This document shows, one piece after another, positions 1-49,219 of a stretch of DNA of 64,000 bases. The translations under genes and the position numbers were made by a program. The stretch is from positions 97,032,001 through 97,096,000 of the forward strand of contig CM059431.1 of assembly GCA_030390025.1 (NCBI GenBank), read 5' to 3'. The notes under the pieces were generated by a model. The model saw nothing but the letters and a program-made list of their open reading frames with translations, was not told the DNA's origin and made no database searches. Each line of letters opens with the position of its first letter. The stretch's first letter is position 1. This DNA is from Squalus acanthias. Lineage: Eukaryota.

Positions 1-2566
1 AACCCAAACACGAAGCATTCTGGAACCCAAACAACAAGCGTTCCAGGACCCAAACACCAAGTGTTCTGGAACCCAAACACCAAGTGTTCCAGGACCCAAA
101 CACCAAGCGTTCCAGGACCCAAACACCAAGCGTTCCAGGAACCAAACCCCAACTGTTCTGGAACCCAAACACCAAGCATTCCAGGACCCAAACACCAAGC
201 ATTCCAGGAACCAAACCCCAACATTTCTGGGACCCAAACTCCAAATGTTCCAGGACCCCAACCCCAAGAGTTTGAGGACCTAAACACCAAGCGTTCCAGG
301 ACCCAAACACCAGGCGTTCTGGAACCCAAACACCAAAAGTTCCAGATTCCAAACACCAAGCATTCTGGAACCCAAACACCAAGCTTTCCGGGACCCAAAC
401 ACCAAGCGTTCCAGGACCCAAACACCAACTGTTCTGGAACCCAAACACCAAGCTTTCCAGGACCCAAACACCAACTGTTCTGGAACCCAAATACCAAGCG
501 ATCCAGGACCCAAACACCAAGCGTTCTGGAACCCAAACACCAAGCGTTCCAGGACCCAAGCACCAAGTGTTCCAGGACCCAAACACCAAGCATTCCAGGA
601 CCCAATCACCAAGCATTCCAGGACGCAAACCCCAAGCGTTCCAGGACCCAAACACCAAGCATTCTAGGACCCAATCACCAAGCAAACTGGGCCCCAAACA
701 CCAAGTGTTCCAAGACCCAAACACCAAGCGTTCCAGAACCCAAACACTAAGTGTTCTGGAACCCAAACACTAAGCGTTATGGTACCCAAACATCAAGCAT
801 TCCAGGACCCAATACCGAAGCATTCCGGAATCCAAATACCAAGCGACCCAGGACCCAAACACCAAGCATTCCAAGACCCAATCACCAAGCATTCTGGAAC
901 CCAAACACCAAGTTTTCTGGGACCCAAACACCAAGCGTTCCAGGACCCAAACACCAAGCAAACTGGGATCCATACCCCAAGCATTCCGGAACCCAAACAC
1001 AAAATGTTCCAGGACCCAAACACCAAGCATTCCAGGACACAAACCCCAATTGTTCTGGAACCGAAACACCTAGCTTTCCAGGACCCAAACACCTAACGTT
1101 CTGGAACACAAACATGAAGCATTCCAGGACCCAAACACCAAGCGTTCTGGAACCCAAACACCAAGCGTTCCAGGACCCAAACACCAAGCATACCGGAACC
1201 CAAACACCAAGCATTCCGGGACCCAAACACCTAACATTCTGGAACCCAAACACGAATCATTCCCGGACCCAAACACCAAGCGTGCTGGAACCCAAACACC
1301 AAGCATTCCAGGACCCAAACACCTAACGTTCTGGAACCCAAACACGAAGCATTCCAGGATCCAAACCCCAAGCGTTCCAGGACTCAACCACCAAGCAAAC
1401 AGGGAGCCAAACACCAAGTGTTCCAGGACGCAAACCCCAAGCGTTCCAGGACCCAAACACCAAGCATTCCAGGACCCAATCACCAAATGTTCCAGGACGC
1501 AAACCCCAAGCGTTCCAGGACCCAAATTCCAAGCATTCTAGGACCCAAACACCACGCAAACTGGGCCCCAAACACCAAGCGTTCCAGGATCCAAACACCA
1601 AGTGTTCCAAGACCCAAACACCAAGCGTTCCAGAACCCAAACACTAAGAATTCTGGAACCCATAACACTAAGTGTTATGGAACCCAAACATCAAGCATTC
1701 CAGGACCCAAACCCCAAGCGTTCCGGAACCCAAATACCAAGCGATCCAGGACCCAAACACTAAGCGTTCTGGAACACAAACACGAAGTGTTATGGAACCC
1801 AAACATCAAGCATTCCGGGACCCAAACCCCAAGCGTTCTGGAACCCAAATACCAAGCGATCCAGGACCCAAACCTTAACCATACTGGGACCCAAACACAA
1901 AGTGTTCTGGGAGCCAAACCCCAAATGTTCCACGACCCAAACAACAAGCGTTCCGGGACTCAAACACCAAGAGTTCCAGGACCCAAACCCAAAATGTGCT
2001 GGAACCCAAACACCAAATGTTCCAGGACCCAAACACCAAGCATTCCAGGATCCAAACACCAAGCATTCCGGAACCCAAACACCAAGCGTTTGAAACCCAA
2101 ACACCATGCGTTCCAGGACCAAAACACCAAGCATTCTGGAACCCAAACACTAAGCATTATGGAACCGAAACAACTTGCATTCAGGAACGCAAACACCAAG
2201 CATTCCAGAACCCAAACTCCAAGCGTTCTGGAACCCAAACTCCAAGCGTTCCAGGACAAAACACCAAGCATTCTGGAACCCAAACACAAAGCATTCCGGA
2301 ACTCAAGCACCAAGCGTTCCAGGACCCAAACACCAAGTGTTCTGGGACCAAAACACGAAGCTAACTGGGCCCCAAACACCAAGCATTCTGGAACCCAAAC
2401 ACCAAGCAAACTGGGCCCCAAACACCAAGCATTCTGGAAACCAAGCACCAAGCAAACTGGAACCCAAACACCAAGCATTCCAGGGCCCAAACACCAAACG
2501 TTCCAGGACCCAAACACCAAGCATTCTGGGACCCAAACACCAACTGTTCTGGGACCCAAACACCAA

Positions 2567-3459
2567 GGGGTAAAAATTCACTTGGTTGCGCCACCCGTTA
2601 GCGCCTTAAGAGGGCGCTAATGGGGCGCAAAGCCGCTAACGCCCGGGCGCAGCGATGTTTGCGCCGCTCGAGAACTTAACTTGAGATTGTGCGGCGGCGC
2701 TAAAACTTACCGCTGCGACCACCTGCGCGCGCAGATTGTGACGTCATTCCATGGTGCAACGCCCTTGGGGTGCCCCGTAGCGGAAATTGAGTGGCGCCCC
2801 CTGCCTTACCGCCTGGCGCTTCCAACGACCAGAAGACTGGAACGCTATCAATCGCTGTGGGGCTGGTGGGGGCGCTATTTAAAGGGGGCCTCTTCCTGTC
2901 TTTTATTGTTGGTGGCATTTTTGAACTACGCATTCTGAGAGAGAGAGGGAGAGACTTCTGGAGAGATTCAACGTTGTGTGAAGGAGTTTTGGGTACTGAG
3001 CAGCACTTTGCAGGTTCATTTTGAATTACCATTCCTTGTATCGATTTAGCAGAGACCGTGGGAGCTGCACTCTGAGCTCTTTGCCTGGTGCTCTCCATTG
3101 TTCTTTCCAGCACATTTGATGTGCAAGTCTCTCCAGGCCGAGATTCAAGGCAGCAATGAACAGGATGTGGATGGAAAGCAAGATTAACCAACCCCTTTAA
3201 GAACTGGCCCGTGCCATTGTGTGTGTGTTCCATTGCTGACTGACATTACATGAGCTTCGCCAGCGCTCCGAGTTAGCCCCTCACTGCTCGGCCTTTGCGC
3301 CTTAAGAGAGGTGTGCAGTGCCTGCTTTAGCGCTCCACTCACCTCCCGGGGCGGTAAAAGTGAAGTTTCCCGTCAGTGCCGATAATTAGCGCCAGGCGCT
3401 AATATTTGCGTCCGGACGATATTTGCGCCCCAAATGGGGTGCGACCTAATTTCTACCCC
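2567..3459 (+). mobile_element. Non-autonomous Harbinger (MITE type I), 893 bp
   Basis: TIRs GGGGTAAAAATT / AATTTCTACCCC; TSD CAA/CAA; both ends match the full-length elements. Confidence 0.95.
2739..2883 (+). promoter_or_regulatory. Putative left-end promoter of the Harbinger family: TGACGTCA (CRE-like, 2739-2746) and TATTTAAA (2876-2883)
   Basis: The same motifs lie upstream of the transposase in full-length copies and are retained in all three MITE types. Confidence 0.55.
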
Positions 3460-6672: not shown

Positions 6673-7568
6673 GGGGGAAAAATTCAGTCGCGCCCCGTTT
6701 GGGGCGCAAATATCGTCCGGGTGCAAAATTAGCGCCTGGCGCTAATTATCGCCACTGACTGGAAACTTCACTTTTATCGACGCCTGAGGTGATTGGAGCA
6801 CTAAATCAGGCGCTTCACACCTGTCTTAAGGCGCAAAGGCCGAGGAGCGAGGCGCTACCTCAGAGCGCTGGCGAAGCTCATGTAATGTCAGTCAGCAATG
6901 GAACACACACACAATGGCACGGGCCAGTTCTTAAAGGGGATGGTTAATCTTGCTTTCCATCCACATCCTACTCATTGCAGCCTTGAATCTCGGCCTGGAG
7001 AGACCTGCACATCAAATCTGCTGGAAAGAACAATGGAGAGTACGAGGCAAAGAGCTCAGAGTGCAGCCCCCACAGTCTCTCCTAAATCGATACAAGGAAT
7101 GGCAAATCAAAATGAACCTGCAAAGTGCTGCTCAGTACCCAAAACTCCTTCACACAACGTTGAAACTCTCCAGAAGTCTCTCTCTCTCTCTCTCTCTCAG
7201 AATGCGTAGTTCAAAAATGGCACCAACAATAAAGGGCAGGTAGCGGTCACCTTTAAATAGCGCTCCCCCTTTCCCTTCATGACTGCAGAATGCTCCCTTC
7301 AACCTGTCGTTGCTAGCGTCAGGCGGTAAGGCAGGGGGCGCCATGCAATATCCGCTCCGGGGCGATACCGGGGTGTTGTGCACTCGACTGACGTCACGAT
7401 CTGCCGGCGCAGGAGATCGTGGCGGTAGTGTTTAGCGCCGCCGCAAAATGTCTAGTTAATTTCGCGAGTGGCGCAAACTTCGCCGGGCCTGGGCGCTAGC
7501 TGCTTTGTGCCCCATTAGCGCCCTCTTAAGGCGTTAACGGGAGGCGCAACCAACTGAATTTTTCCCCC
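6673..7568 (-). mobile_element. Non-autonomous Harbinger (MITE type II), 896 bp
   Basis: TIRs GGGGGAAAAATT / AATTTTTCCCCC; TSD TAA/TAA; reverse orientation; left subterminal region diverged from type I. Confidence 0.95.
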
Positions 7569-8106
7569 TAAGTGTTATGGAACCCAAACACCAAGGGGTA
7601 AAAATTCACTTGGTTGCGCCTCCCGTTAGCACCTTAAGAGGGCGCTAATGGGGTGTTAAGCCGCTAACGCCCGGGCGCAGCGCTGTTTGCGCCGCTCGAG
7701 AACTTAACTTGAGATTGTGCGGCGGCGCTAAAACTTACCGCTGCGACCACCTGCGCGCGCAGATTGTGACGTCATTCCATGGTGCAACGCCCTTGGGGCG
7801 CCCCGGAGCGGAAATTGAGTGGCGCCCCCTGCCTTACCGCCTGGCGCTTCCAACGACCGGAAGACTGGAACGTTATCAATCGGTGTGGGGCTGGGGGGGG
7901 CGCTATTTAAAGGGGGCCTCTTCCTGTCTTTTTCTGTGGTCGACATTTATGCACCACTCGTTCTGAGAGAGAGAGAGAGATTCGGAGAGAGAGAGAGAGA
8001 GACTTCTACATTGACTCAATGCTTTGTGAGGTAGTTTTGCCGAGTTCATCCTAACTTTGTTGCTACTTTAGTTGCTGTACCTCATTACTTTTCTGGCAAA
8101 GAGAAT

Positions 8107-9269
8107 ATGGGGGCTGCAATGATTGGGGGCGTCGTCCTGCTCCAGCTGAATCGGAGGATAGTGAGACGCAGACAGAGAGTGGCAATGATGGTCAGACGGA
8201 GGAGGGCCATCAGGCGCATGTACAGGAGAGCTTACCCTCCCAGGGTATATCGTGAACAGCTCTCCTACATCCATATGTCCGAGGAGCTGTGTTTGCGAAG
8301 GCTGCGATTCAGCAAGGAGGTGGTCACTGAGCTCTGCCACCTGCTGCAGCCAGATCTGCAGCCTCAGCTGAGGTCCAGGACATCTCTGTCGGTGGCAGTG
8401 AAGGTCACAGTGGCTTTGAACTTCTACGCCACTGGCTCATTCCAAGCTGCTGTTGGGGACCTCGCCAATATCTCCCAGTTTGCGGTGCATTGCTGCATCC
8501 GGCAGGTCACCAATGCCCTCTTCAGAAGGAGACGAGACTTCATCTCTTTCCCTATGACCCCAGACAAGCAGCAGTGACCGTGCTCTGGGCTTTGTGAGGG
8601 TAGCGGGCTTCCCCATGGTGCAGGGCGCCATTGACTGCACGCATGTGGCTTTGCGTGCTCCGCGAGAGAATGCAGAGGAATTCAGGAACAGAAAGGGGTT
8701 CCATTCCTTGAATGTGCAGTTGGTCTGTGACCACAGACAGGTGATACTCGCTGTCAATGCCCACTATCCGGGCAGCTGCCACGATGCTTTCATCCTGCGC
8801 CAGACTACTGTGGCAGAACTTTTCGAGGCACCGCATCAGCCAGTTGGTTGGCTTCTGGGGGACAAGGGGTACGCATTGAGCACCTGGCTGATGACACCGC
8901 TCCGTACGCCAAACACCCCTGCTGAGCTGCGGTACAATGAAAGCCATCAAGCAACCAGGAACATTATTGAGCGCACAATCGGCGTGCTGAAACAACGGTT
9001 CCGCTGTCTGGACCATTCCGGAGGAGCCCTGCAGTACTCGCCTGAGCAAGTTTCGAACTTCGTAGTCGTGTGCTGCATGTTGCACAACATGGCAATCCTC
9101 AGGACCCAGCCAATGCCACCAGGCCTTGTAGCACCACCAGAGGAGGAGGAGGAAGAGGAGGAACAGGACGAGGACGATGATCATCAGCAGCACCAAGGCA
9201 GGAGGGCGGCCCACAATGGTCAAACTGCAAGGGCCTGTCCGTCAACGACTAATAGTAAGCCGCTTCTAG
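8107..9269 (+). pseudogene. Harbinger (HARBI1-like, DDE_Tnp_4) transposase, disrupted
   Basis: GAIDCTH / LLGDKGY / RNIIERTIG motifs. Relative to the intact copy at 34809 there are +1 insertions near 8574 (CAGCAGTGA) and near 9236. Confidence 0.92.
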
Positions 9270-9563
9270 GGCCCCTGCCATTGCTACAAACACTAATCAA
9301 CCCAGCACGCAACCCCTAAGCCGGCCAAGGCACCAATAATTCCAACCACCAGCCATGTATATTTTGAATACAGAAACTTATTTATTTTACAAACTCTGTG
9401 TGTGTCAATTCCTCATGACAAACTCATAGAAATAAACACAAAAAAACAGTCAATAACATAACTGGTTCTCACAACCTGGAGATAATGTCCAAAACACTAA
9501 ACAAAAGTTGGACCATGAACCTCGGCCTTTAATAAAAAAATGACCAGCATTTTGGCACACCTC

Positions 9564-11386
9564 CTACTTTTTGCCCTTCGAGGGTGATCTCCTTCCCTTG
9601 CGCACTTCCCCCCTTCTAACCCTACTGCTCCTCCGTAATGGGACCTCAGTGGCTGCAGCAAGGCTGGTGGAAGGCTGCTGCTTGTGAGACCCTGACACTG
9701 CAGATGCCCCTGAAGGACGGCCTCGACCACTTCTGGGCCTGGAGGGCCCGGCTGCAGACTGCACCAACTCTGCATGGGCGGCAGCAGTCTGTCCTACAGG
9801 CGGTGGCAAGTGCAGTGGAGAAGTGACAGTGTTGGCAGCAGGAATGCTGTCATCGTGAGAGAGGACAGCAACTCCCTGCTCGCCCGACACACTGGCACTC
9901 CCACGGGGCAGCACTTCAGCATCCGGAGCAATTTGCCGGAGAACAGATTGCTGGCCTGCTGCGGCGCGGTGACAGCCCCGGGGACATGTGCACGAACCAT
10001 CGAGGATGGCAGCAGTCAGTGCTCGCGTGGCCTCAATCTGAGTCTGCATGAGAGCAGTCTCAGATGGGTTCCTGGCAGCCAGTGACTGAATTGCAGCACT
10101 AAGCTGTAGTGTGGCATCCGCCTGTGCTACAGCGAAGTGCTCCACACTCCTTGCCAGTGACTCAATGCATTCGGGCACCCTTCCCACTGCACCCATGAGC
10201 TCAGTGTGCATGCCCACTGCCTGGCTGTTCATTTCTGCAATCAGCCGCTCCTCCTCTGCGTCCATTGCAGTAGGAGTGTCTGGCATACTCTCCCTCTGGG
10301 GAGAAGGCTCCCGTTCTTCCCTCCCCCCCCCATGGCGTTGCTGCAGCCCGCTGGGTCCTGGAGCTTCACCATCATCAGCCCCTTCCCCCCTGCTCCCCTC
10401 CGGGGAAGGCGTGTTCCCAGTGTGGGCATGGGCTTCCTCGGGAGAGGGTGGCACTGATGCTCCGGCTTCCTCTTCCTCCTCAGCTGCAGCATCACTCCCA
10501 GTGGCAGCTTCAGGGCCCGTCTCCTCAGCTGGTGAATCACCATCTGAAAGCAGGGAGGTACAAGAGTGGCTTTAGCGTGAGGACAGGGTGGCAGTAAGGG
10601 AGGAATAAGTGCAGCGAGTTAGCAAGTTGGATTGAAAGTGTCAAAGGCTGGTATTGTGAGGGACAAGTGGAAGGACAGAGGACAAAAAGGTGATGACCTT
10701 ACCATTGCTGTCCACAACGGGGTCGGCGTCCCCAGTGGCGACGGGACCGATCACCCGGCTTGCCACAATCCTGTGGACGCGCTCCTCCAGATCGCTGAGG
10801 GGTTGCAGCTGAAGCCGCCCTCCACCCGTCCGTTGCTGCTGTCTCCGATTATGAGCCAGCTTAGCCTGCAAGAAAAAGGACAGCATCTGAGTAAATATAC
10901 AGCCATGGTCTTGCCTGATGTGCCTCCCATAGGTGAATAGCCCTTACAATATGCAGCCATGGTCTTGCCTGATGTGCCTCCCATAGGTGAATAGCCCTTA
11001 CTGTATGCAAAGTGTGGAATGTGTGTGTGTGTTTGATGAAAGGGCCATAGGTGTTGGATGAGTGTTGTGCATTGGGGTTTTAAGACCCTCTGGCCATAGA
11101 GTGAGGTTGAGATGGAGGGATGGAGAGGTATTGAGAAAAAGCCACTCACCCTGACGACCCGAGTGAGGTCGTTGAACTTTTTGTGGCACTGAACATGGGT
11201 CCTGGGCACCATGCTCCTGGAGGAGACGCTCTGAGCCACCTCCCTCCACACTCTTCTGAACTCGCGTGGCAAAGGCCTCCTGCCACTCTCCGGGAACAGC
11301 ATGCATCGTCTGCGCTCCACTGCGTCAACCAGAGCATCCAAGGCCCGCTCGGTGAAGCGATGAGCGCGTTCTCTCACCCTCTCCAT
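9564..11386 (-). CDS. Harbinger Myb/SANT-like DNA-binding protein, 3 exons (11386-11150, 10865-10703, 10543-9564), ~459 aa
   Basis: Exon 1 carries RF..L..LV...W..VA..V......R...QC.KKF.DL (Myb/SANT-like); exon 2 carries RTGGG. GT-AG sites with compatible phases give 1380 nt in frame. Confidence 0.85.
10900..11007. repeat. 54-bp tandem duplication in intron 1 of the Myb-like gene (present in all four full-length copies)
   Basis: CAGCCATGGTCTTGCCTGATGTGCCTCCCATAGGTGAATAGCCCTTAC..TATG occurs twice. Confidence 0.9.
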
Positions 11387-12390
11387 GCTTGGCAGCAAAA
11401 TGAATTACAGGTCTCTCCAGGCTGAGATTCAAGGCTGCAATGAGCAGGGTGTGGCTGGGGAGCAAGTGGCCCCCCCTGCTTTAAGAAGTGTCCGGCGCAA
11501 TTGTGTCTGTGTTCCCTCACTAACTGGCAGCAGCTGCGCTGCGCTCGTGCGCTGAGGTAGCGCCTCACTCCTAGGCCTTTGCGCCTTAAGAGAGGTGTGC
11601 AGCGCCTAATTTAGCGCTCCACTCACCTCCCGGGGCGGTAAAAGTGAAGTTTCCTGTCAGTGCCGATAATTAGCGCCAGACGCTAATATTTGCGCCCGGA
11701 CGATATTTGCACCCCAAATGGGGCGCGACCTAATTTCTACCCCCAAGTGTTCCAGGACCCAAACACCAAGCGTTCTGGAACCCAAACAGCAAACGTTCTG
11801 GGACCCAAACCCCAAGTGTTCTGGACCCAAACACCAAGATTTCCAGGACCCAAACACCAAGCAAACTGGGACCCAAACCCCAAATGTTCTGGAACACAAA
11901 CACCAAACGTTCCGGGACCCAAACACCAAGCATTCCAGTAACCAAACACTAACTGTTCTGGGACCCAAACACCAAGTATTCTGGGAACCCAAACAGCAAG
12001 CGTTTCAGGACCCAAACACCAAGCGTTCCAGGACCCAAACCCCAACTGTTCTGGAACCCAAACACCAACCGTTCTGGAACCCAAACAGCAAGCCTTCCAG
12101 GAGCCAAACACCAAGCCAACTGGGCCCAAAACAGCAAGCGTTCGACGACCCAAACACCAAGCGTTCCGGGAACCAAACACCAAGCGTTCCAGGACCGAAA
12201 CACCAAGCAAACTGGGCCCCAAACACAAAGCGTTCCAGGACCCAAACACCAAGCAAACTGGGCCCCAAACACCAAGCATTCTAGAAATCAAACACCAAGC
12301 GTTCCAGGACCCAAACCCCAACCGTTCCGGAACCCAAACCCCAACTGTTCTGGAACCCAAACACCAAGCGTTCCAGGACCCAAACACCAG

Positions 12391-13150
12391 GGGGTAAAAA
12401 TTGAGTCGCGCCCCATTTGGGGCGCTAACCTCGCCGGGGCGCGACTTTTAGCGCCCCGAAAAAATTAGCGGCCCCGCGCCGGAACTTCAGTGGTTGCGCC
12501 CCAAGAGGGAAGCGGGGCGCAACTGGAAGCAGCCCGCATCCCTCTTGGGGCGCTGCGAGTGAATATCCTGGCGTTACGTGCCGCAGCGCCATGCGCTGCG
12601 GCACGTCGCGCCGCGGTATTGCAGGCCTTCCTCCCCTTCTTAAAGGGGCGGGACCCTGCGCAGCGCGAACCGGGGCCCAGCTGGGCCCCCAGGGATCGGG
12701 AGTGCCGGCAAAAGAGCCCGGCACTCAAGAGAAGTGCCGGGCTCTTGGAGCGCAGCCGGCACTTCACGGTGGGGGGGCTTCACGGGGGCCGGGGGCAGGT
12801 GCTGGCAGGCGGCCAGCAACAAAAATGGCCGCCTGCCACCTCCGCTTTAAATATCGATGCCCCGGCCGCACGTACGCCTCCCTGAACCCGTCGGACATAG
12901 CGTCTGGCGGTAAATCAGGGGGCGCGACTGAAGATCACGGCCGGGGCGCGAGCGGGGTGCTGCGCACGGCGATGACGTCATCGCCGGCGGCGCAGCGCCC
13001 CAGGGCGCTACCGGCTGCCGCCGCCGCTAACCTCCCACTAAATTTTTCGGGAGGCGTGGGCGGCGCTGCGCCCGGGCGTTAGCTGCTTTACGCCCATTAG
13101 CGCCCTCTTAAGGCGCTAACGGGAGGCGCAAGCAGCTGAATTTTTCCCCC
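12391..13150 (-). mobile_element. Non-autonomous Harbinger, distinct GC-rich family (type III), 760 bp
   Basis: TIRs GGGGTAAAAATT / AATTTTTCCCCC; flanks CAG/CAA; shares terminal sequence with the other elements but has a different interior. Confidence 0.9.
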
Positions 13151-21593: not shown

Positions 21594-21624
<31 letters not shown>

Positions 21625-35969: not shown

Positions 35970-36263
35970 GGCCCCTGCCATTGCTACAAACACGAATCAA
36001 CCCAGCACGCAACCCCTAAGCCGGCCAAGGCACCAATAATTCCAACCACCAGCCATGTATATTTTGAATACAGAAACTTATTTATTGTACAAACTCTGTG
36101 TGTGTCAATTCCTCATGACAAACTCATAGAAATAAACACAAAAAAACAGTCAATAACATAACTGGTTCTCACAACCTGGAGATAATGTCCAAAACACTAA
36201 ACAAAAGTTGGGCCATGAACCTCGGCCTTTAATAAAAAAATGACCAGCATTTTGGCACACCTC

Positions 36264-38173
36264 CTACTTTTTGCCCTTCGAGGGTGATCTCCTTCCCTTG
36301 CGCACTTCCCCCCTTCTAACCCTACTGCTCCTCCGTAATGGGACCTCAGTGGCTGCAGCAAGGCTGGTGGAAGGCTGCTGCTTGTCAGACCCTGACACTG
36401 CAGATGCCCCTGAAGGACGGCCTCGACCACTTCTGGGCCTGGAGGGCCCGGCTGCAGACTGCACCAACTCTGCATGGGCGGCAGCAGTCTGTCCTACAGG
36501 CGGTGGCAAGTGCAGTGGAGAAGTGACAGTGTTGGCAGCAGGAATGCTGTCATCGTGAGAGAGGACAGCAACTCCCTGCTCGCCCGACACACTGGCACTC
36601 CCACGGGGCAGCACTTCAGCATCCGGAGCAATTTGCCGGAGAACTGATTGCTGGCCTGCTGCGGCGCGGTGACAGCCCCGGGGACATGTGCACGAACCAT
36701 CGAGGATGGCAGCAGTCAGTGCTCGCGTGGCCTCAATCTGAGTCTGCATGAGAGCAGTCTCAGATGGGTTCCTGGCAGCCAGTGACTGAATTGCAGCACT
36801 AAGCTTTAGTGTGGCATCCGCCTGTGCTACAGCGAAGTGCTCCACACTCCTTGCCAGTGCCTCAATGCATTCGGGCACCCTTCCCACTGCACCCATGAGC
36901 TCAGTGTGCATGCTCACCGCCTGGCTGTTCATTTCTGCAATCAGCCGCTCCTCCTCTGCGTCCATTGCATTAGGAGTGTCTGGCATACTCTCCCTCTGGG
37001 GAGAAGGCTCCCGTTCTTCCCTCCCCCCCCCATGGCGTGGCTGCAGCCCGCTGGGTCCTGGAGCTTCACCATCATCAGCCCCTTCCCCCCTGCTCCCCCG
37101 TTCTTCCCTCCCCCCCCAATGGCGTTGCTGCAGCCCGCTGGGTCCTGGAACTTCACCATCATCAGCCCCTTCCCCCCTGCTCCCCTCCGGGGAAGGCGTG
37201 TTCCCAGTGTGGGCATGGGCTTCCTCGGGAGAGGGTGGCACTGATGCTCCGGCTTCCTCTTCCTCCTCAGCTGCAGCATCACTCCCAGTGGCAGCTTCAG
37301 GGACCATCTCCTCAGCTGGTGAATCACCATCTGAAAGCAGGGAGGTACAAGAGTGGCTTTAGCGTGAGGACAGGGTGGCAGTAAGGGAGGAATAAGTGCA
37401 GCGAGTTAGCAAGTTGGATTGAAAGTGTCAAAGGCTGGTATTGTGAGGGACAAGTGGAAGGACAGAGGACAAAAAGGTGATGACCTTACCATTGCTGTCC
37501 ACAACGGGGTCGGCGTCCCCAGTGGCGACGGGACCGATCACCCGGCTTGCCACAATCCTGTGGACGCGCTCCTCCAGATCGCTGAGGGGTTGCAGCTGAA
37601 GCCGCCCTCCACCCGTCCGTTGCTGCTGTCTCCGATTATGAGCCAGCTTAGCCTGCAAGAAAAAGGACAGCATCTGAGTCAATATACAGCCATGGTCTTG
37701 CCTGATGTGCCTCCCATAGGTGAATAGCCCTTACAATATGCAGCCATGGTCTTGCCTGATGTGCCTCCCATAGATAAATAGCCCTTACTGTATGCAAAGT
37801 GTGGAATGTGTGTGTGTGTTTGATGAAAGGGCCATAGGTGTTGCATGAGTGTTGTGCATTGGGGTTTTAAGACCCTCTGGCCATAGAGTGAGGTTGAGAT
37901 GGAGGGATGGAGAGGTATTGAGAAAAAGCCACTCACCCTGACGACCCGAGTGAGGTCGTTGAACTTTTTGCGGCACTGAACATGGGTCCTGGGCACCATG
38001 CTCCTGGAGGAGACGCTCTGAGCCACCTCCCTCCACACTCTTCTGAACTCGCGTGGCAAAGGCCTCCTGCCACTCTCCGGGAACAGCATGCATCGTCTGC
38101 GCTCCACTGCGTCAACCAGAGCATCCAAGGCCCGCTCGGTGAAGCGATGAGCGCGTTCTCTCACCCTCTCCAT
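36264..38173 (-). CDS. Myb/SANT-like protein, 3 exons (38173-37937, 37652-37490, 37330-36264), ~488 aa
   Basis: Same splice sites as the other copies; exon 3 has an in-frame 87-bp duplication. Confidence 0.85.
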
Positions 38174-38557
38174 GCTTGGCAGCAAAATGAATTACAGGTC
38201 TCTCCAGGCTGAGATTCAAGGCTGCAATGAGCAGGGTGTGGCTGGGGAGCAAGTGGCCCCCCCCCGCTTTAAGAAGTGTCCGGCGCCAGTGTGTCTGTGT
38301 TCCCTCGCTAACTGGCAGCAGCTGCGCTGCGCTCGTGCGCTGAGGTAGCGCCTCACTCCTAGGCCTTTGCGCCTTAAGAGAGGTGTGCAGCGCCTAATTT
38401 AGCGCTCCACTCACCTCCCGGGGCGGTAAAAGTGAAGTTTCCTGTCAGTGCCGATAATTAGCGCCAGGCGCTAATATTTGCGCGCGGACGATATTTGCGC
38501 CCCAAATGGGGCGCGACGTAATTTCTACCCCTAAGCATTCTGGAACCCAAACACCAA

Positions 38558-39452
38558 GGGGGAAAAATTGAGTTGGTTGCGCCTCCCGTTAGCGCCTTAA
38601 GAGGGCGCTAATGGGGCGCAAAGCAACTAGCGCCTGGGCGCAGCGATGTTTGCGCCGCTCGCGAACTTAACTAGACATTTTGCGGCGGCGCTAAACACTA
38701 CTGCCACGATCTCCTGCGCTGGCAGATCGAGACGTCAGTCGAGTGCGCAACGCCCCGGTATCGCCCCGGAGCGGATATTGAGTGGCGCCCCCTGCCTTAC
38801 CGCCTGACGCTAGCAACGACAGGTTGAGGGGAGCGTTCTGCAGTCAGGAAGGGAGAGGGGGAGCGCTATTTAAAGGTGACCGCTTCCTGCCTTTTATTGT
38901 TGGTGCCATTTTTGAACTCCGCATTCTGAGAGAGAGAGAGAGAGAGACTTCTGGAGAGATTCAACGTTGTGTGAAGGAGTTTTGGGTACTGAGCAGCACT
39001 TTGCAGGTTCATTTTGATTTGTCATTCCTTGTATCGATTTAGAAAAGAATGTGGGGGCTGCACTCTGAGCTCTTTACCTGGTACTCTCCATTGTTCTTTC
39101 CAGCAGATTTGATGTGCAGGTCTCTCCAGGCCGAGATTCAAGGCTGCAATGAGCAGGATGTGGATGGAAAGCAAGATTAACCATCCCCTTTAAGAACTGG
39201 CCCGTGCCATTGTGTGTGTGTTCCATTGCTGACTGACATCACATGAGCTTCGCCAGCGCTCTGAGGTAGCGCCTCGCTCCTCGGCCTTTGCGCCTTAACA
39301 CAGGTGTGAAGTGCCTGATTTAGTGCTCCAATCACTTCCAGGGGCGATAAAAGTCAAGTTTGCAGTCGGTGGCGATAATTAGCGCCAGGCGCTAATCTTT
39401 GCGCCCGGCCGATAATTGCGCCCCAAATGGGGCGATACTGAATTTCTCCCCC
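38558..39452 (+). mobile_element. Harbinger MITE type II, 895 bp
   Basis: TIRs; TSD CAA/CAA; one satellite unit away from the preceding element. Confidence 0.95.
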
Positions 39453-40421: not shown

Positions 40422-41312
40422 GGGGTAAAAATTCAGTTGGTTGCGCCTCCCGTTGCGCCTTAAGAGGGCGCTAATGGGGCGCAAAGTCGCTAATGCCCGG
40501 GCGCAGCGATGGTTGCGCCGCTCGGGAACTTAACTAGAGATTGTGCGGCGGCGCTAAACTTTACCGCTGCGACCACCTGCGCGCGCAGATTGTGACGTCA
40601 TTCCATGGTGCAACGCCCTTGTGGCGCCCCGGAGCAGAAATTGAGTGGCGCCCCCTGCCTTACCGCCTGGCGCATCCAACGACCAGAAGACTGGAACGCT
40701 ATCAATCGCTGTGGGGCTGGTGGGGGCGCTATTTAAAGGAGGCCTCTTCCTGTCTTTTATTGTTGGTGGCATTTTTGAACTACGCATTCTGAGAGCGAGA
40801 GGGAGAGACTTCTGGAGAGATTCAACATTGTGTGAAGGAGTTTTGGGTACTGAGCAGCACTTTGCAGGTTCATTTTCATTTGCCATTCCTTGTATCGATT
40901 TAGCAGAGACTGTGGGAGCTGCACTCTGAGCTCTTTGCCTGGTACTCTCCATTGTTCTTTCCAGCACATTTGATGTGCAAGTCTCTCCAGGCCGAGATTC
41001 AAGGCTGCAATGAACAGGATGTGGATGGAAAGCAAGATTAACCATCCCCTTTAAGAACTGGCCCGTGCCATTGTGTGTGTGTTCCATTGCTGACTGACAT
41101 TACATGAGCTTCGCCAGCGCTCTGAGTTAGCGCCTCACTCCTTGGCCTTTGCGCCTTAAGACAGGTGTGCAGCGCCTGATTTAGCGCTCCACTCACCTCC
41201 CAGGGCGGTAAAAGTGAAGTTTCCAGTCAGTGCCGATAATTAGCGCCAGGCGCTAATATTTGCGTCCAGACGATATTTGCGCCCCAAATGGGGCGCGACC
41301 TAATTTTCCCCC
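40422..41312 (+). mobile_element. Harbinger MITE type I, ~891 bp
   Basis: TIRs (right TIR 1 nt short); TSD CAA/CAA. Confidence 0.93.
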
Positions 41313-42487
41313 CAAATGTTTTGGGACCCAAACAACAAGCATTCTGAAACCCAAATACTAAGTGTTCTGGAACCCAAACACCAAACGTCTGGAACCCAAA
41401 CACCAAGCGTTCCGGTATTCAAACACAATGCATTCCAGACCCAAACTCCAAGTGTTCCGGGACCCAAACACCAAGCTTTCCGGAACCCAAACACCAGGTT
41501 TTCTGAGACCCAAACACAAGCGTTCCAGGACCCAAACACCAGCATTCCAGGACCCAAACACCAATCGTTCTGGAACCAAACACCAAGCGTTCCGGGACCC
41601 AAACACCAAGCATTCTGGAACCAAACACCAAGCGTTCTTGGACCCAAACAACAAGCGTTCCAGGACACAAACACCAGGATTTCTGGGACACAAACACCAA
41701 GCAAACTAGGACCCAAACACCAAGTGCACCAAGACCCAAACATCCAAGCATTCTGGAACCCAAACAGCAAGCGTTCTGGAACCCAAACACCAAGCGTTCA
41801 GGAACCCAAGCACCAAGTGTTCCGGGATTCAAACACAATGCGTTCCAGGACCCAAACTCCAAGCATTCCGGGACCCAAACACCAAGCTTTCTGGGACTCA
41901 AACACCAAGCGTTCTGGGACCCAAACACCAAGCGTTCTGGGACCCAAACACCATGTGTTCTGGAACCAAACACCAAGGGGGAAAAATTCAGTTGGTTGCG
42001 CCTCCCGTTAGCGCCTTAAGAGGTCGCAAATGGGGCGCAAAGCCGCTAGCGCCCGGGCGCAGCGATATTTGCGCCGCTCGGGAACTTAACTAGACATTGT
42101 GCGGCGGCGCTAAACTTTACCGCTACGACCACCTGCGCGCGCAGATTGTGACGTCATTCCATGGTGCAACGCCCTTGTGGCGCCCCGGAGCGGAAATTGA
42201 GTGGCGCCCCCTGCCTTACCGCCTGGCGCATCCAACGACCGGAAGACTGGAACGCTATCAATCGCTGTGGGGCTGGGGGGGGCGCTATTTAAAGGGGGCC
42301 TCTTCCTGTCTTTTTCTGTGGTTGACATTTTTGCACCACTCGTTCTGAGAGAGAGAGAGAGATTCGGAGAGAGAGAAAGAGAGACTTCTGCATTGAGTCA
42401 ACGCTTTGTGAGGTAGTTTTTTCTACTGATCCTAACTTCGCTGGTACTTTGGTTGCTGTCCTTCATAACTTTGCTTGCAAAGAGACT

Positions 42488-43645
42488 ATGGGGGCTGCAC
42501 TGAATGGGGGCGTCATCCTGCTCCAGCTGAATCGGAGGACACAGAGACGCAGAGAGAGAGTGGCAATGATGGCCAGACGGAGGAGGGCCAACAGGCGTCT
42601 GTACAGGAGAGCTCACCCTCCCAGGGTATATCGTGAACAGCTGTCCTACATTCATTTGTCTGAGGAGCTGTGTTTGCGAAGGCTGCAATTCAGCAAGGAG
42701 GTGGTCACTGAGCTCTGCCACCTGCTGCAGCCAGATCTGAGGTCCAGGACGTCTCTGTCGGTGGCAGTGAAGGTCACAGTGGCTCTCAACTTCTATGCTA
42801 CTGGCTCATTTCAAGCTGCTGCTGGGGACCTCGCCAATATCTCCCAGTTCACGGTGCATTGCTGCATCCGGCAGGTCACAAATGCCCTCTTTAAAAGGAG
42901 ACGAGAGTTCATCTCTTTCCCCATGACCCCAGACAAGCAGCGTGACCGCGCTCTGGGCTTTGCGAGGATAGCGGGCTTCCCCATGGTGCAGGGCGCCATT
43001 GACTGCACGCATGTGGCTTTGCGTGCTCCACATGAGAATGCCGAGGATTTCCGGAACAGAAAGAGGTTCCATTCCTTGAATGTTCAGTTGGTCTGTGACC
43101 ACAGACAGCTGATACTCGCTGTCAATGCCCACTATCCTGGCAGCTGCCACGATGCTTTCATCCTGCGCCAGACTACTGTGGCAGAACTTTTCGAGGCACC
43201 GCATCAGCCAGTTGGTTGGCTTCTCGGGGACAAGGGGTATCCATTGAGCACCTGGCTGATGACACCGCTCCGTACGCCCAACACCCCTGCTGAGCTGCGG
43301 TACAACGAGAGCCATCAAGCTACCAGGAACATCATTGAGCGCACAATCGGCGTGCTGAAGCAACGGTTCCGCTGTCTCGACCATTCTGGAGGAGCCCTGC
43401 AGTACTCGCCTGAGCGAGTATCCAACTTCGTAGTTGTGTGCTGCATGTTGCATAACATGGCAATCGTCAGTACCCAGCCAATGCCACCAGGCCTTGGAGC
43501 ACCACCAGAGGAGGAGGAGAAAGAGGAGGAAGAGGAGGAAGAGGACGAGGAGGATGATCATCAGCAGCACCAAGGCGGGAGGGCGGCCCACAATGGTGAA
43601 ACTGCAAGGGCCGTCCGTCAATGGCTGATAGCAAGCCGCTTCTAG
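42488..43645 (+). CDS. Harbinger DDE transposase, 385 aa
   Basis: Uninterrupted ORF from ATG 42488; DDE triad intact; 4-aa deletion (QPQL) and KGF>KRF relative to the other copies. Confidence 0.93.
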   Translation: MGAALNGGVILLQLNRRTQRRRERVAMMARRRRANRRLYRRAHPPRVYREQLSYIHLSEELCLRRLQFSKEVVTELCHLLQPDLRSRTSLSVAVKVTVALNFYATGSFQAAAGDLANISQFTVHCCIRQVTNALFKRRREFISFPMTPDKQRDRALGFARIAGFPMVQGAIDCTHVALRAPHENAEDFRNRKRFHSLNVQLVCDHRQLILAVNAHYPGSCHDAFILRQTTVAELFEAPHQPVGWLLGDKGYPLSTWLMTPLRTPNTPAELRYNESHQATRNIIERTIGVLKQRFRCLDHSGGALQYSPERVSNFVVVCCMLHNMAIVSTQPMPPGLGAPPEEEEKEEEEEEEDEEDDHQQHQGGRAAHNGETARAVRQWLIASRF

Positions 43646-43955
43646 GGCCCCTGCTGTGGAAATGGCTTCTGCCATTGCTAACAACATCAATGAACCCAGG
43701 ACGCAACCCCTAAGCCGGCCAAGGCACCAATGATTCCAAACACCAAACATGTATATTTTGAATACAAAAACTTATTTATTTTACAAACTCTGTGTGTGTC
43801 ATTTCCTCATGACAAACTCATAGAAATAAACACAAAAAAAGTCATTAACATAACTGGTTCTCACAACCTGGAGATAATGTCCAAAACACTAGACAAAAGT
43901 TGGACCACGAACCTCGGCCTTTAATAAAAAAATGACTAGCATTTTGTCACACCTC

Positions 43956-45775
43956 CTACTTTTTGCCCTTCGAGGGTGATCTCCTTCCCTTGCGCACTTC
44001 CCCCCTTCTAACCCTACTGCTCCTCCGTAATGGGACCTCAGTGGCTGCAGCAAGGCTGGTGGAAGGCTGCTGATTGTCAGACCCTGACACTGCAGATGCC
44101 CCTGAAGGACGGCCTCGACCAGTTCTGGGCCTGGAGGGCCCGGCTGCAGACTGCACCAACTCTGCATGGGCGGCAGCAGTCTGTCCTACAGGCGGTGGCA
44201 ACTGCAGTGGAGAAGTGACAGTGTTGGCAGCAGGAATGCTGTCATCGTGAGAGAGGACAGCAACTCCCTGCTCGACCGACACACTGGCACTCCCAAGGGG
44301 CAGCACTTCAGCATCCGGAGCAATCTGCTGGAGCACAGATTGCTGGCCTGCTGCGGCGCGGTGAGAGCCCCGGGGACATGTGAACGAACCATCGAGGTTG
44401 GCAGCAGTCAGTGCTCGCGTGGCCTCAATCTGAGTCTGCATGAGAGCAGTCAGAGATGGGATCACGGCAGTCAGTGACTGAATTGCAGCACTAAGCTTTA
44501 GTGTGGCATCCGCCTGTGCTACAGCGAAGTGCTCCACACTCCTTGCCAGTGACTCAATGCATTCGGGCACCCTTCCCACTGCACCCATGAGCTCAGTGTG
44601 CATGCCCACCGCCTGGGTGTTCATTTCTGCGATCAGCCGCTCCTCCTCTGCGTCCATTGCAGTAGGAGTCGCTGGCATACTCTCCCTCTGGGGAGAAGGC
44701 CCCCGTTCTTCCCTACCCCCATGGCGTTGCTGCAGCCCGCTGGGTCCTGGAGCTTCACCCTCATCAGACCCTTCCCCCCTGCTCCCCTCCAGGGAAGGCG
44801 TGTTCCCAGTGTGGGCATGGGCTTCCTCGGGAGAGGGTGGCACTGATGCTCCGGCTTCCTCTTCCTCCTCGGCTGCAGCTTCACTCCCACTGGCAGCTTC
44901 AGGGCCCGTCTCCTCAGCTGGTGAATCACCATCTGAAAGCAGGGAGGTACAAGAGTGGCTTTAGCGTGAGGACAGGGTGGCAGTAAGGGAGGAATAAGTG
45001 CAGCGAGTTAGCAAGTTGGATTGAAAGTGTCAAAGGCTGGTGTTGTGACGGACAAGTGGAAGGACAGAGGACAAAAAGGTGATGACCTTACCATTGCTGT
45101 CCAGAACGGGGTCGGCGTCTCCAGTGGCGACGGGACCGATCACCCGGCTTGCCACAATCCTGTGGACGCGCTCCTCAAGATCGCTGAGGGGTTGCAGCTG
45201 AGGCCGCCCTCCACCTGTCCGTTGCTGCTGTCTCCTATTATGCGCCAGCTTGGCCTGCAAGAAAAAGGACAGCATCTGAGTAAATATACAGCCATGGTCT
45301 TGCCTGATGTGCCTCCCATAGGTGAATAGCCCTTACTGTATGCAGCCATGGTCTTGCCTGATGTGCCTCCCATAGATGAATAGCCCTTACTGTATGCAAA
45401 GTGTGGAATGTGTGTGTGTGTTTCATGAAAGGGCCATAGGTGTTGGATGAGTGTTGTGCATTGGGGTTTTAAGACCCTCTAGCCATAGAGTGAGGTTGAG
45501 ATGGAGGGATGGAGAGGTATTGAGAAAAAGCCACTCACCCTGACGACCCGAGTGAGGTCGTTGAACTTTTTGCGGCATTGAACATGGGTCCTGGGCACCA
45601 TGCTCCTGGAGGAGACGCTCTGAGCCACCTCCCTCCACACTCTTCTGTACTCGCGTGGCAAAGGCCTCCTGCCACTCTCAGGGAAGAGTATACATCTTCT
45701 GCGCTCCACCGCGCCAACCAGAGCATCCAAGGCCTGCTCGGTGAAGCGCTGAGCTCGTTCTCTCACCCTCTCCAT
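43956..45775 (-). CDS. Myb/SANT-like protein, 3 exons (45775-45539, 45254-45092, 44932-43956), ~458 aa
   Basis: Conserved GT-AG junctions; 1377 nt in frame. Confidence 0.85.
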
Positions 45776-46320
45776 CCTTGGCAGCAAAATGGATTCACAG
45801 GTCTCTCCAGGCCGAGATTCAAGGCTGCAATGAGCAGGGTGTGGCTGGGGAGCAAGTTGGCCCCCCCTGCTTTAAGAACTGGCCGGCGCCAGTGTGTCTG
45901 TGTTCCCTTGCTAACTGGCAGCACCTGCGCTGCGCTCGCGCGCTGAGTTAGCGCCTCACTGCTCGGCCTTTGCGCCTTAAGACAGTGTGCAGCGCCTGAT
46001 TTAGCGCTCCACTCACGTCCCGGGGCGGTAAAAGTGAAGTTTCCAGTCAGTGGCGATAATTAGCGCCAGACGCTAATTTTTGCGTCCAGACGATATTTGC
46101 GCCCCAAATGGGGTGCGACCTAATTTTTTCCCCCAAGTGTTTCGGAACCCAAAGACCAAGCGTTTCGGAACCCAAACACCAAACGTTCTGGGATTGAAAC
46201 ACAAAGTGTTCCAAGACCCAAACACCAACCTTTCCGGGACCAAAACACCAAGCATTCTGAAACCTAAACACCAAACATTCCGGAACCCAAACACCAAGCG
46301 TTCCGGGACCCAAACACTAA

Positions 46321-47214
46321 GGGGTAAAAATTCACTTGGTTGCGCCACCCGTTAGTGCCTTAAGAGGGCGCTAATGGGGCGCAAAGCCGCTAACGCCCGG
46401 GCGCAGCGATGTTTGCGCCGCTCGAGAACTTAACTTGAGATTGTGCGGCGGCGCTAAAACTTACCGCTGCGACCACCTGCGCGCGCAGATTGTGACGTCT
46501 TTCCATGGTGCAACGCCCTTGGTGCGCCCCGTAGCGGAAATTGAGTGGCGCCCCCTGCCTTACCGCCTGGCGCTTCCAACGACCAGAAGACTGGAAGGCT
46601 ATCAATCGCTGTGGGGCTGGGGGGGGGCGCTATTTAAAGGGGGCCTCTTCCTGTCTTTTATTGTTGGTGGCATTTTTGAACTACGCATTCTGAGAGAGAG
46701 AGGGAGAGACTTCTGGAGAGATTCAACGTTGTGGGAAGGAGTTTTGGGTACTGAGCAGCACTTTGCAGGTTCATTTTGATTTGCCATTCCTTGTATCGAT
46801 TTAGCAGAGACCGTGGGAGCTGCACTCTGAGCTCTTTGCCTGGTGCTCTCCATTGTTCTTTCCAGCACATTTGATGTGCAAGTCTCTCCAGGCCGAGATT
46901 CAAGGCAGCAATGAACAGGATGTGGATGGAAAGCAAGATTAACCATCCCCTTTAAGAACTGGCCCGTGCCATTGTGTGTGTGTTCCATTGCTGACTGACA
47001 TTACATGAGCTTCGCCAGCGCTCCGAGTTAGCGCCTCACTGCTCGGCCTTTGCGCCTTAAGAGAGGTGTGCAGCGCCTGCTTTAGCGCTCCACTCACCTC
47101 CCGGGGCGGTAAAAGTGAAGTTTCCCATCAGTGCCGATAATTAGCGCCAGGCGCTAATATTTGCGTCCGGACGATATTTGCGCCCCAAATGGGGCGCGAC
47201 CTAATTTCTACCCC
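46321..47214 (+). mobile_element. Harbinger MITE type I, 894 bp
   Basis: TIRs; flanks TAA/CAA (mismatched). Confidence 0.94.
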
Positions 47215-47286: not shown

Positions 47287-48181
47287 GGGGGAGAAATTCA
47301 GTATCGCCCCATTTGGGGCGCAATTATCGGCCAGGCGCAAAGATTAGCGCCTGGCGCTAATTATCACCTCCAACTGCAAACTTGGCTTTTATCGCCCCTG
47401 GAGGTGATTGGAGCGCTAAATCAGGCGCTTCACAACTGTCTTAAGGCGCAAAGGCCGAGGAGCGAGGCGCTACCTCAGAGCGCTGGCGAAGCTCATGTGA
47501 TGTCAGTCAGCAATGGAACACAGACACAATGGCACCAGCCAGTTCTTAAAGGGGAGGGTTGATCTTGCTCTCCATCAACATCCTGCTCATTGCAGCCTTG
47601 AATCTCGGCCTGGAGAGACCTGTACATCAAATCTGCTGGAAAGAACAATGGAGAGACCCAGGGAAAGAGCTCAGAGTGCAGCCCCCACAGTCTCTTCTAA
47701 ATCGATACAAGGAAGGGCAAATCAAAATGAACCTGCAAAGTGCTGCTCAGTACCCAAAACTCCTTCACACAGCGTTGAATCTCTCCAGAAGTCTCTCTCT
47801 CTCTCTCTCAGAATGCGTGGTGCAAAAATGTCACCAACAAAAAAAGGCAGGAAGCGGTCGCCTTTAAATAGCGCTCCCCCAGTCCCTTCCTGACTGCAAA
47901 ACGCTCCCCTCAACCTGTCGTTGCTAGCGGCAGGCGGTAAGGCAGGGGGCGCCACTCAATATCCGCTCCGGGGTGCTACCTGGAGCGTTGCGCACTCGAC
48001 TGACGTCACGAGCTGCCTGCGCAGGAGAGCATGGCAGTAGTGTTTAGCACCGCCGCAAAATGTCTAGTTAATTTCGTGAGTGGCGCAAACATCGCCGCGC
48101 ACGGGCACTAGTTGCTTTGCGCCCCATTAGCGCCCTCTTAAGGCGCTAACGTGAGGTGCAAACCAACTGAATTTTTCCCCC
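47287..48181 (-). mobile_element. Harbinger MITE type II, 895 bp
   Basis: TIRs; TSD CAA/CAA. Confidence 0.95.
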
Positions 48182-49219
48182 CAAGTGTTCCGGAACCCAA
48201 ACACCAAGGGTCCCGGAACCCAAACACCAAGGATTCTGGAACCCAAACACCAAGCGTTCCAGGACCCAAACACCAAGCTTTCTGGAACCCAAACACTAAG
48301 CATTCTGGAAGCCAAACACCAAGTATTTCGGGACCCAAACACCAAGCGTTCTGGAACTCAAACGCTAAGCGTTCTGGGACCCAAACACCAAGCGTTCCGG
48401 GACCCAAACACCAAGCGTTCTGTAACCCAAACACCAAGCGTTATGGAACGCAAGCACCAAGTGTTTCAGGACATCAACACCAAGCATTCTGGAACCCAAA
48501 CACTTAACGTTTCGGAACCCAAACACCAAACATTCCAGAACCTAAACACCAAGCGTTCTGGGATTCAAACACAAAACATTCCAGGACCCAAACACCAAGT
48601 GTTGTGGGACCCAAACACCAAGCGTTCCAGGACCCAAACATCAAGCATTCCAGGACCCAAATACCAAGCGTTCTGAAACCCAAACACCAAGTGTTTCAGA
48701 ATACAAACACCAAGCGTTCCAGAACCCAAACACCAAGCGCTCTGGAACCCAAACAACAAATGTTCAGAACCCAAACAACAAATGTTCCAGAACCCAAACA
48801 CCAAGCATTCCAGGACCCAAACACAAAGCGTTCCAGGACCCAAACACCAAGCGTCCCGGGACCCAAACACCAAGCATTCCGGGACCCAAACACCAAGCGT
48901 TCCGGGACCCAAACACCAAGCGTTCTGGGACCCAAACACCAAGTGTTCTGGAACCCAAACACCAAGCGTTCCGGAACCCAAACACCAAGCGTTCTGGAAC
49001 CCAAACACCAAGTGTTCTGGAACCCAAACACCAAGTGTTCCGGAACCCAAACACCAAGCGTTCTGGGACCCAAACACTAAGCAGTCTGGGACCCAAACAT
49101 CAAACGTTCCGGGGCCTAAACACTAAGCAGTCTGGGGCCCCTTTCTTTGAAGTCTTGGCGAAGTTCTTTGTGGACCACTCAACACATCCTGTCACACTCA
49201 CCTGGAGGGGAAAGTGGAC

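Follow-up and report, generated by a model that had tools for sequence, protein, structure and literature searches.

One register of a private 23-bp tandem array holds 17 Harbinger transposons in Squalus acanthias: a hotspot probably due to ordinary target preference

A 64,000-nucleotide stretch of the genome of Squalus acanthias (GenBank assembly GCA_030390025.1, 3.71 Gb; contig CM059431.1, here C7, positions C7:97,032,001-97,096,000; the whole stretch is called the window) contains a 23-bp tandem array that is interrupted by 17 transposons of the PIF/Harbinger superfamily, all of them in the same register of the repeat. With a probability of about 0.8, we take this hotspot to be ordinary target specificity, like that of the zebrafish element Harbinger3_DR, meeting a chance tandem array of near-consensus target sites. 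In this account a young and very abundant PIF/Harbinger group, made up of autonomous elements (with a DDE transposase and a Myb/SANT-like protein) and three deletion-derived MITE (miniature inverted-repeat transposable element) families with the same termini, would select its insertion sites by sequence, and the palindromic target would be cut in such a way that its central 3 bp become duplicated. The unit of the array reads CCAAACAC-CAA-G[C/T][G/A]TTC, so that its left half-site is perfect and its right one near-perfect, and such a unit in tandem offers about 900 candidate sites within 21 kb. Arrivals from a genome-wide pool would have landed in the single matching register, with a preference for those monomers in which a CpG had decayed to give GTGTT and hence a completed palindrome. 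The target reader is presumably a transposase dimer that reads the two half-sites, and the array itself probably has no evolved role.

The elements and the array

The window was searched for the termini GGGG[G/T/A]N[A/G]A[A/G]ATT and their complement, which yielded exactly 17 left and 17 right ends, pairing into 17 elements (E1 to E17). Together these sum to 28,205 bp, with four elements of 4149-4235 bp, twelve of 892-897 bp and one of 760 bp, corresponding to 4 autonomous elements and 13 MITEs, and their terminal inverted repeat (TIR) is GGGG[G/T]A[A/G]AAATT, about 12 bp long. All 17 are preceded by the same kind of motif plus 3 bp, the motif being AAACAC in 13 cases and AAGCAC in four (E10, E11, E14 and E17), and GYRTT follows directly after 15 of them, the exceptions being E11 and E14. 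In 13/17 the element has the same 3 bp on either side; the informative cases are TAA/TAA (E2, E10 and E12) and CTA/CTA (E7), pointing to a 3-bp target-site duplication (TSD). Eleven elements lie in the + and six in the - orientation, and the chance of a shared register, reckoned as 15 further coincidences among 23 registers, is ~4e-21. None of the 17 is nested in another. Outside the array, family-A MITEs are found nested within other Harbingers at two loci (L011, in a family-B-like terminus, and L028, in an autonomous interior), so that the absence of nested copies in the array does not reflect a trait of the family. An earlier reading of this DNA, made from the sequence only, had described 17 Harbingers at one fixed position of the 23-bp repeat, in both orientations, mostly followed by GYRTT, filling ~28 kb of 49 kb without nesting and coming from two autonomous subfamilies and three MITE families, and the TIR scan and the BLAST groups below agree with it in each of these respects.

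All-against-all BLAST separates the autonomous elements into two subfamilies with 98% identity within each. Subfamily 1 comprises E3 (7595..11743, +, 4149 bp) and E12 (34297..38531, +, 4235 bp, TSD TAA/TAA), and subfamily 2 comprises E6 (20052..24222, +, 4171 bp) and E15 (41977..46133, +, 4157 bp). MITE family A (96-99%) contains E1 (2567..3459, +, 893 bp, TSD CAA/CAA), E5 (15315..16208, -, 894 bp), E8 (29303..30198, +) and E9 (30294..31189, -), which both belong to an older subfamily, E10 (32110..33006, +, TSD TAA/TAA), E14 (40422..41313, +, its right boundary ambiguous by 1 bp) and the young E16 (46321..47214, +, TSD TAA/CAA). Family B (90-98%) is formed by E2 (6673..7568, -, 896 bp, TSD TAA/TAA), which is one monomer away from E3, E7 (24592..25483, +, 892 bp, TSD CTA/CTA), E11 (33286..34178, -), E13 (38558..39452, +), which is one monomer away from E12, and E17 (47287..48181, -). 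E4 (12391..13150, -, 760 bp, TSD CAG/CAA) stands alone as family C.

E12 has an open transposase frame of 386 amino acids (34809..35969, +) that matches DDE_Tnp_4 (PF13359) with E=1.8e-37, the value in E6 being 4.6e-40, and on the opposite strand it carries a second gene (36264..38191, -), whose N-terminal part (37679-38191) is Myb/SANT-like and whose C-terminal part is an open frame at 36264-37358; the two are probably separate exons. The Myb/SANT-like domain, Myb_DNA-bind_5 (PF13873, E=5.7e-9), lies opposite the transposase in both E12 and E6, and the second gene was found in 4/4 autonomous copies. By tblastn the transposase frame is uninterrupted in E12 and E15 (the latter with an open frame of 385 amino acids at 42488-43645) and frameshifted in E3 and E6. 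There are 345 transposase homologues, of which the nearest named ones are shark and ray models of a 'putative nuclease HARBI1' with at most 65% identity, which by itself points to a cartilaginous fish as the probable host. Because DDE and Myb/SANT-like genes occur together with 3-bp duplications and short TIRs, the elements are PIF/Harbinger transposons accompanied by Tourist-like MITEs. All four autonomous elements also contain a 54-bp tandem duplication in 2.1-2.2 copies (10894-11009, 23373-23486, 37680-37796 and 45285-45398), and E12 alone has an extra 87-bp duplication (37010-37185) within the C-terminal frame of its second gene, which accounts for its greater length.

The main array, with consensus ACCCAAACACCAAGCGTTCCGGG and no assigned strand, occupies positions 1..49128 by Tandem Repeats Finder and a periodicity mask; the blocks reported by Tandem Repeats Finder span 2 to 49128 with 69-82% matches between neighbouring units, and the mask shows the non-repeat gaps that interrupt them. 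Without the elements it amounts to ~20.9 kb of repeat, and it extends ~3.5 kb upstream of the window. In a pattern search of the 3.7-Gb genome the exact unit CCCAAACACCAAGYRTTCY has 244 matches, all on the forward strand, of which 206 lie within the window and the other 38 directly upstream of it, from C7:97,028,468. The satellite is thus a private array of about 50 kb at a single locus. At C7:97029337-97031172, upstream of the window, the spacing pattern of the exact units recurs after 1,173 bp (51 units), which indicates a recent higher-order duplication of this part of the array.

Independence and origin of the insertions

Insertions in a tandem array can be multiplied together with the repeat, and the flanks of all element pairs were compared with those of random pairs of in-register array positions on a rebuilt empty array, from which the elements and one TSD copy each had been removed (20,872 bp). 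Against a background flank identity of 0.77-0.78 (standard deviation 0.03-0.06, varying with flank length), E11 and E17 stand at 0.90 for flanks of ±92 bp and at 0.87 for flanks of ±184 bp (empirical p<=0.0007), and in the alignment they have their flanks in common on both sides, one monomer having been lost on the right of E11. E11 and E17 are one insertion copied by segmental duplication. E10 and E14 have four private substitutions in common as well as similar near flanks. Correction for multiple testing leaves their flank identity (p=0.011) without significance, and element pairs of different families, for which duplication is impossible, reach values just as high. The 17 insertions counted by the sequence-only reading therefore stand for 16 independent events, possibly 15 if the doubtful pair E10/E14 is also a duplicate, and its proviso that a few insertions might have been multiplied by duplication applies to E11/E17 alone, the only pair with shared flanks. 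Segmental duplication was rejected by this test as a general explanation.

The duplication also provides a relative date. Downstream of E17, an unbroken AAACAC-TAA-GCATTCTGGAAGCCAAACAC-CAA-GTATTT (48291..48328, +) is the empty counterpart of the E12 and E13 sites, and upstream of E11 there is an empty counterpart of the E16 site (33208..33230, +). It follows that E12, E13 and E16 arrived after the E11/E17 duplication, and the empty paralogous sites allow the state before insertion and the 3-bp TSD to be seen directly. Twice in the array, neighbouring monomers are taken up by a MITE of family B and an autonomous element of subfamily 1, namely by E2/E3 (6673-11743) and by E12/E13 (34297-39452), in each case with TAA as the left and CAA as the right triplet and with identical 23-nt left flanks. 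Since the orders and orientations differ, the two pairs do not go back to a single composite that was copied; the paired sites have the look of old paralogues, each of which received two insertions.

The group to which the array elements belong is very large. The terminal pattern GGGGNANAAATT has 140,405 matches in the genome against 15,742 for a reversed control, which gives about 124,700 real TIR ends and hence ~62,000 elements, of which the array holds 17, at an insertion density 48-fold above the genome average. Among the 29 copies elsewhere that are most similar to E1 (99% identical), none (0/29) lies in the satellite and all are in unrelated sequence, 24/29 having identical 3-bp flanks. 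The junction CCAARCAC-NNN-TIR occurs 103 times genome-wide and 0 times in controls; 16 of these junctions are the window's own, and among the other CCAARCAC-flanked insertions in the matches listed 0/28 are in the satellite. The best matches of E8 are on other contigs at 99-100% identity (one, on C10, at ~100%), as against 15 sites that differ from E9. E1 likewise has copies on other contigs that are 99-100% identical and closer than its neighbours in the array, and E1, E5 and E16 differ mutually at 12-14 sites, but from the majority sequence of 36 aligned copies they differ at no more than 6-8. On this evidence the array elements were separate arrivals from a dispersed and recently active pool and not a local lineage.

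Target preference outside the array

A target matrix was built from 75 unique half-sites at the loci L002-L058, all of them non-satellite and not chosen by their flanks. Its consensus is the palindrome TAARANAC-TWA-GTNTYTTA, ~19 bp long and carrying ~9 bits in total. Position -4 is A in 64/75 half-sites, position -1 is C in 46/75, the N position is C in 35/75 and position -2 is A or T; the triplet follows T-W-A, with C at its first position in 6/75 and G at its third in 9/75. The sequence-only reading had allowed for flanks elsewhere in the genome being without a motif, and the TAARANAC half-site in these 75 flanks shows that the motif is there. A listing of 100 flanks agrees with the matrix as judged by eye. 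At the scale of the genome, AACAC stands directly before the triplet at 4,904 TIR ends (control 21). These make up 3.9% of all ends, while the background frequency of the motif is 0.12% per position, so that it is enriched 33-fold. The target specificity is a graded preference of ~9 bits and not a strict site.

Dispersed repeats that carry the motif have been hit several times in one place, by elements of different subfamilies or in different orientations (L006/L007/L023/L026, L033/L036/L044 and L042/L043/L051), and these are further sequence-determined hotspots. L046 and L054 are also loci of this type, and an example of a repeated target elsewhere is …GAAGGC-TTT-GTGTCTTAA…. In addition, many of the listed flanks carry …TATGA[C/T]TC-TAT, which suggests one more common repeated target.

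Choice among the units of the array

When the consensus unit is scored in each of its 23 registers with the matrix derived outside the satellite, the observed register scores +5.7 bits and the next best -3.0, so that only one register is positive. Among variants of the right half-site, GTGTT scores 9.3 and GCATT 4.2, while GCAAA, found in a variant satellite, scores -2.6. This variant 23-bp satellite (…CCCAAACACCAGGCAAACTGGGG…) was located by Tandem Repeats Finder at 50144..50444 and again, as 152 units with 90% matches, at 54942..58441, in neither case with an assigned strand; it retains the left half-site AAACAC, reads GCAAA on the right side, and is more homogeneous than the main array (88-90% against 69-82% matches). 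Its target score is negative and the number of insertions expected in it is 0.004, which matches the finding that neither block contains a Harbinger.

Within the main array, too, the matrix separates the units that were hit from those that were not. Occupied units have a median score of 10.9, whereas the 837 unoccupied units in the same register have one of 6.0 (Mann-Whitney p=7e-4), and 9/79 units that score >=10 are occupied (11%, band 11-12%), compared with 7/774 below that score (~1%). GTGTT follows 9/16 events and 106/853 units (12%; p=3.5e-5), and as a right half-site it completes the palindrome with AACAC. AA[A/G]CAC is present in 16/16 events as against 73% of units (p=0.006), and the triplet TAA in 4/16 events as against 4.5% of units (p=0.005), in agreement with the TWA preference. 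Among units with AAACAC, those with GCGTT, that is with an intact CpG, were hit in 1/183 cases and those with GCATT in 4/149, though the matrix ranks GCGTT higher; these very small numbers could hint at an avoidance of methylated CpG.

Occupancy per motif and the residual excess

The empty core AACAC-NNN-GTGTT is found 3,881 times genome-wide, 63 of them in the window. Two estimates are available for the occupied cores. The first 100 AACAC-flanked ends listed include 2 opposed pairs with matching triplets (C1:46,720,397/46,721,287 and C1:35,558,206/35,563,057), corresponding to ~98 occupied cores genome-wide, and if half-sites are assumed to be independent, 62,350 × 0.039² ≈ 96. Sequence preference explains most of the enrichment in the array and leaves a residual of 3-5-fold, an estimate limited by the small numbers outside and by a blunt matrix of 75 sites. 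The palindromic core AACACNNNGTGTT is itself rarer than its reversed (not complemented) control, with 3,881 against 8,372 occurrences genome-wide; this deficit is much larger than ~100 occupied sites could account for and is likely due to dinucleotide composition (TG/CA richness).

Several points weigh against a purely sequence-based account. Core occupancy in the array is 7/70 (10%) compared with ~2.3% outside (odds ratio ~4.7), the outside value being itself an estimate from 2 pairs or from the assumed independence of half-sites, and the flanking bases of the array, scored with the matrix, account for only ~1.4-fold of this gap. Summing 2^score over the array predicts 3.5-6.7 insertions where 16-17 are observed, and the matrix used for this is based on 75 half-sites only. 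AAGCAC precedes 3/16 events as against 19/853 units (2.2%; p=0.005), although the matrix disfavours G at -4; this excess is partly hitch-hiking, because 11/19 AAGCAC units carry GTGTT. The insertions are also clustered beyond what the matrix predicts, with 9/16 events in 3.5 kb around E12-E15 where 18% would be expected (scan p=0.01-0.08), and the two element pairs in adjacent monomers have p ~0.02.

The residual could come from local hopping of resident autonomous copies, from tolerance in a gene-free array, or from an advantage of tandem sites as such. We find it rather unlikely that tandem multimerised target sites capture insertions supra-additively, with hits clustering next to earlier hits. 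Were this so, a cut-and-paste transposon with sequence specificity would find a natural sink in a tandem near-consensus array, by way of facilitated target search along the repeated sites, of local hopping or of tolerance, and a burst of transposition could be dampened by such arrays even where the host has no machinery dedicated to it.

Alternative explanations

Local hopping or a regional effect could also be put forward as the main cause. E12 and E15, with their open transposase frames, would then mobilise elements that reinsert nearby, or the region would simply be accessible, and sequence would set no more than the register. The nine events around E12-E15, the two adjacent-monomer pairs and the 3-5-fold residual per motif are what such a process would leave behind. 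The MITEs of the array are nevertheless not each other's closest relatives, as seen in E8, which is nearest to the C10 copy and 15 sites away from E9, and in E1, E5 and E16; the choice of monomers follows the genome-wide matrix; and no insertion is found in the variant satellite next to the array or in the 15 kb beside it. As the main cause, local hopping is improbable.

The sequence-only reading had favoured dedicated satellite targeting, in which the array serves as a landing pad or safe haven, or the host keeps it to trap elements as a decoy, much as R1/R2 are targeted to ribosomal DNA (rDNA) or Dada to small-RNA genes. A fixed register in 17/17 cases, a density 48-fold above the genome average, an occupancy per perfect motif 3-5-fold above that outside, and insertions in both orientations with two copies that have open transposase frames all fit such a system, and the mixture of orientations is loosely reminiscent of piRNA-cluster traps, as a resemblance only. 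Other measurements speak strongly against it: the satellite is a single locus of ~50 kb with 244/244 of the exact units of a 3.7-Gb genome; 17 of ~62,000 dispersed elements are inside it, and the sampled copies elsewhere (0/29 and 0/28) are all outside satellite; the TSD preferred by the family is TWA and not the CAA of the satellite; and the half-site preference is common to the zebrafish element, which implies that it predates this private array. The suggestion that the satellite is a multimerised recognition site holds in the sense that each monomer carries a target site, whereas a satellite-targeted system, a safe haven and a host trap find no support, and we regard dedicated targeting as very improbable. 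The same reading had reasoned that an equal rate per motif outside the array would speak against any trap role; the rates, ~2.3% outside and 10% inside, with 1.4-fold explained by flanks, come close to that situation.

Two other origins for a special relation between satellite and elements were considered. The satellite and the elements' subterminal GGCGCTAA/TTAGCGCC repeats have 55 near-matching 9-mers, compared with 38 in shuffles, which is near chance, so that a role of the satellite as a decoy for the Myb-like protein, mimicking the subterminal repeats, is unsupported. Derivation of the satellite from the element was likewise set aside, as no likeness to the termini was seen.

Passive accumulation, in which gene-free heterochromatin tolerates any insertion and removal is rare, is barely credible as the cause of the pattern. 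Tolerance probably aids the persistence of insertions and could feed the 3-5-fold residual, but 17/17 interruptions of the main array are from one TIR group in one register, and LINE (long interspersed nuclear element) copies, common in the next 15 kb, are absent from the main array. Array dynamics, that is, unequal crossing-over that multiplied a handful of insertions with their flanks, has a negligible chance of being the explanation, since beyond E11/E17, the 1,173-bp higher-order period upstream and the private variants and similar near flanks of E10/E14, which do recall such a process, no same-family pair exceeds the flank identity of different-family pairs, five families in both orientations with different TSDs are involved, and the empty paralogous sites place E12, E13 and E16 after the duplication.

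Neighbourhood of the array

Beyond the main array, a near-full non-LTR retrotransposon (a LINE) with endonuclease-like and reverse-transcriptase-like open frames lies at 51040-54940, and four fragments of the same kind are found at 49357-49734, 59976-60338 (-), 62116-63192 and 63568-63954 (-). Both blocks of the variant satellite begin, at 50144 and 54942, right where a LINE copy has its 3' end, and the LINE may have inserted into the variant satellite or may have seeded it. A 46-bp repeat at 50445-50751 (6.7 copies, 93% matches) adjoins the variant satellite.

Significance

With some 900 near-identical sites that differ by single bases and were exposed to the same transposition burst, the locus amounts to a natural experiment on target choice by a vertebrate Harbinger transposase. 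It reads out the rules for the half-site, GTGTT being favoured over GCATT and GCGTT, and GCAAA units being without hits. That a strong target preference, known from zebrafish Harbinger3_DR, also acts in a natural family bears on the application of Harbinger-type transposases to site-biased integration. The locus also calls for caution in genome scans, as a seemingly satellite-specific pattern can arise from the chance match of a private repeat with an ordinary target preference.

Comparison with known systems

Several known systems combine features that are seen here. The rice elements mPing, Ping and Pong resemble the present group in having an autonomous element with MITEs that are mobilised in trans, and in a 3-bp TSD of TWA type. 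Their extended target preference is AT-rich and weak in rice, and to our knowledge they have no tandem-array hotspot. In the open-access full texts that were searched, no description was found of Harbinger insertions forming a hotspot within tandem or satellite repeats, or of the target specificity of shark Harbingers.

Dada transposons and the R1/R2 non-LTR retrotransposons insert at a fixed position of a multicopy repeat (PMC3706591). They are strict specialists with copies almost only in their target, while here 17 of ~62,000 copies are in the array, at one locus. Systems of this type have nearly all of their copies in the target, which the present group does not, and they live in a durable, conserved multicopy target, for which a repeat with 244/244 units at one locus and 69-82% identity between adjacent units does not qualify. 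The closest analogue in behaviour (PMC3706591, PMC4912750) is Pokey of Daphnia, a member of the piggyBac superfamily that inserts at one specific position of rDNA and in other genomic places as well. Like the elements described here, Pokey is a cut-and-paste transposon with MITEs that uses one position of a tandem unit and is also found elsewhere; it differs in its superfamily and in its target, which is the conserved multicopy 28S rRNA gene and not a private non-coding 23-bp array.

The most instructive comparison is with zebrafish Harbinger3_DR, for which PMC3016246, citing Sinzelle et al. 2008, gives a marked preference for the palindromic target AAACACCWGGTCTTT of ~15 bp; the sequence-only reading had named this target, and it is in print there. 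As described in that text, Harbinger3_DR has two genes (a transposase and a Myb-like one), a 3-bp TSD and a palindromic target preference, as have the elements of the array. Its half-sites, AAACAC and, on the other strand, AAAGAC, would both fit the ARANAC measured here, and the central triplet differs, being CWG in Harbinger3_DR, TWA in the present group genome-wide, and CAA, TAA or CTA in the array. The likeness is one of target and gene content. The locus is a new example of a known behaviour, sequence-directed target choice, and not a new satellite-targeting system. The strong target preference of the reconstructed zebrafish element thus also acts, with another triplet, in a very successful natural family of ~62,000 copies in a cartilaginous-fish genome.

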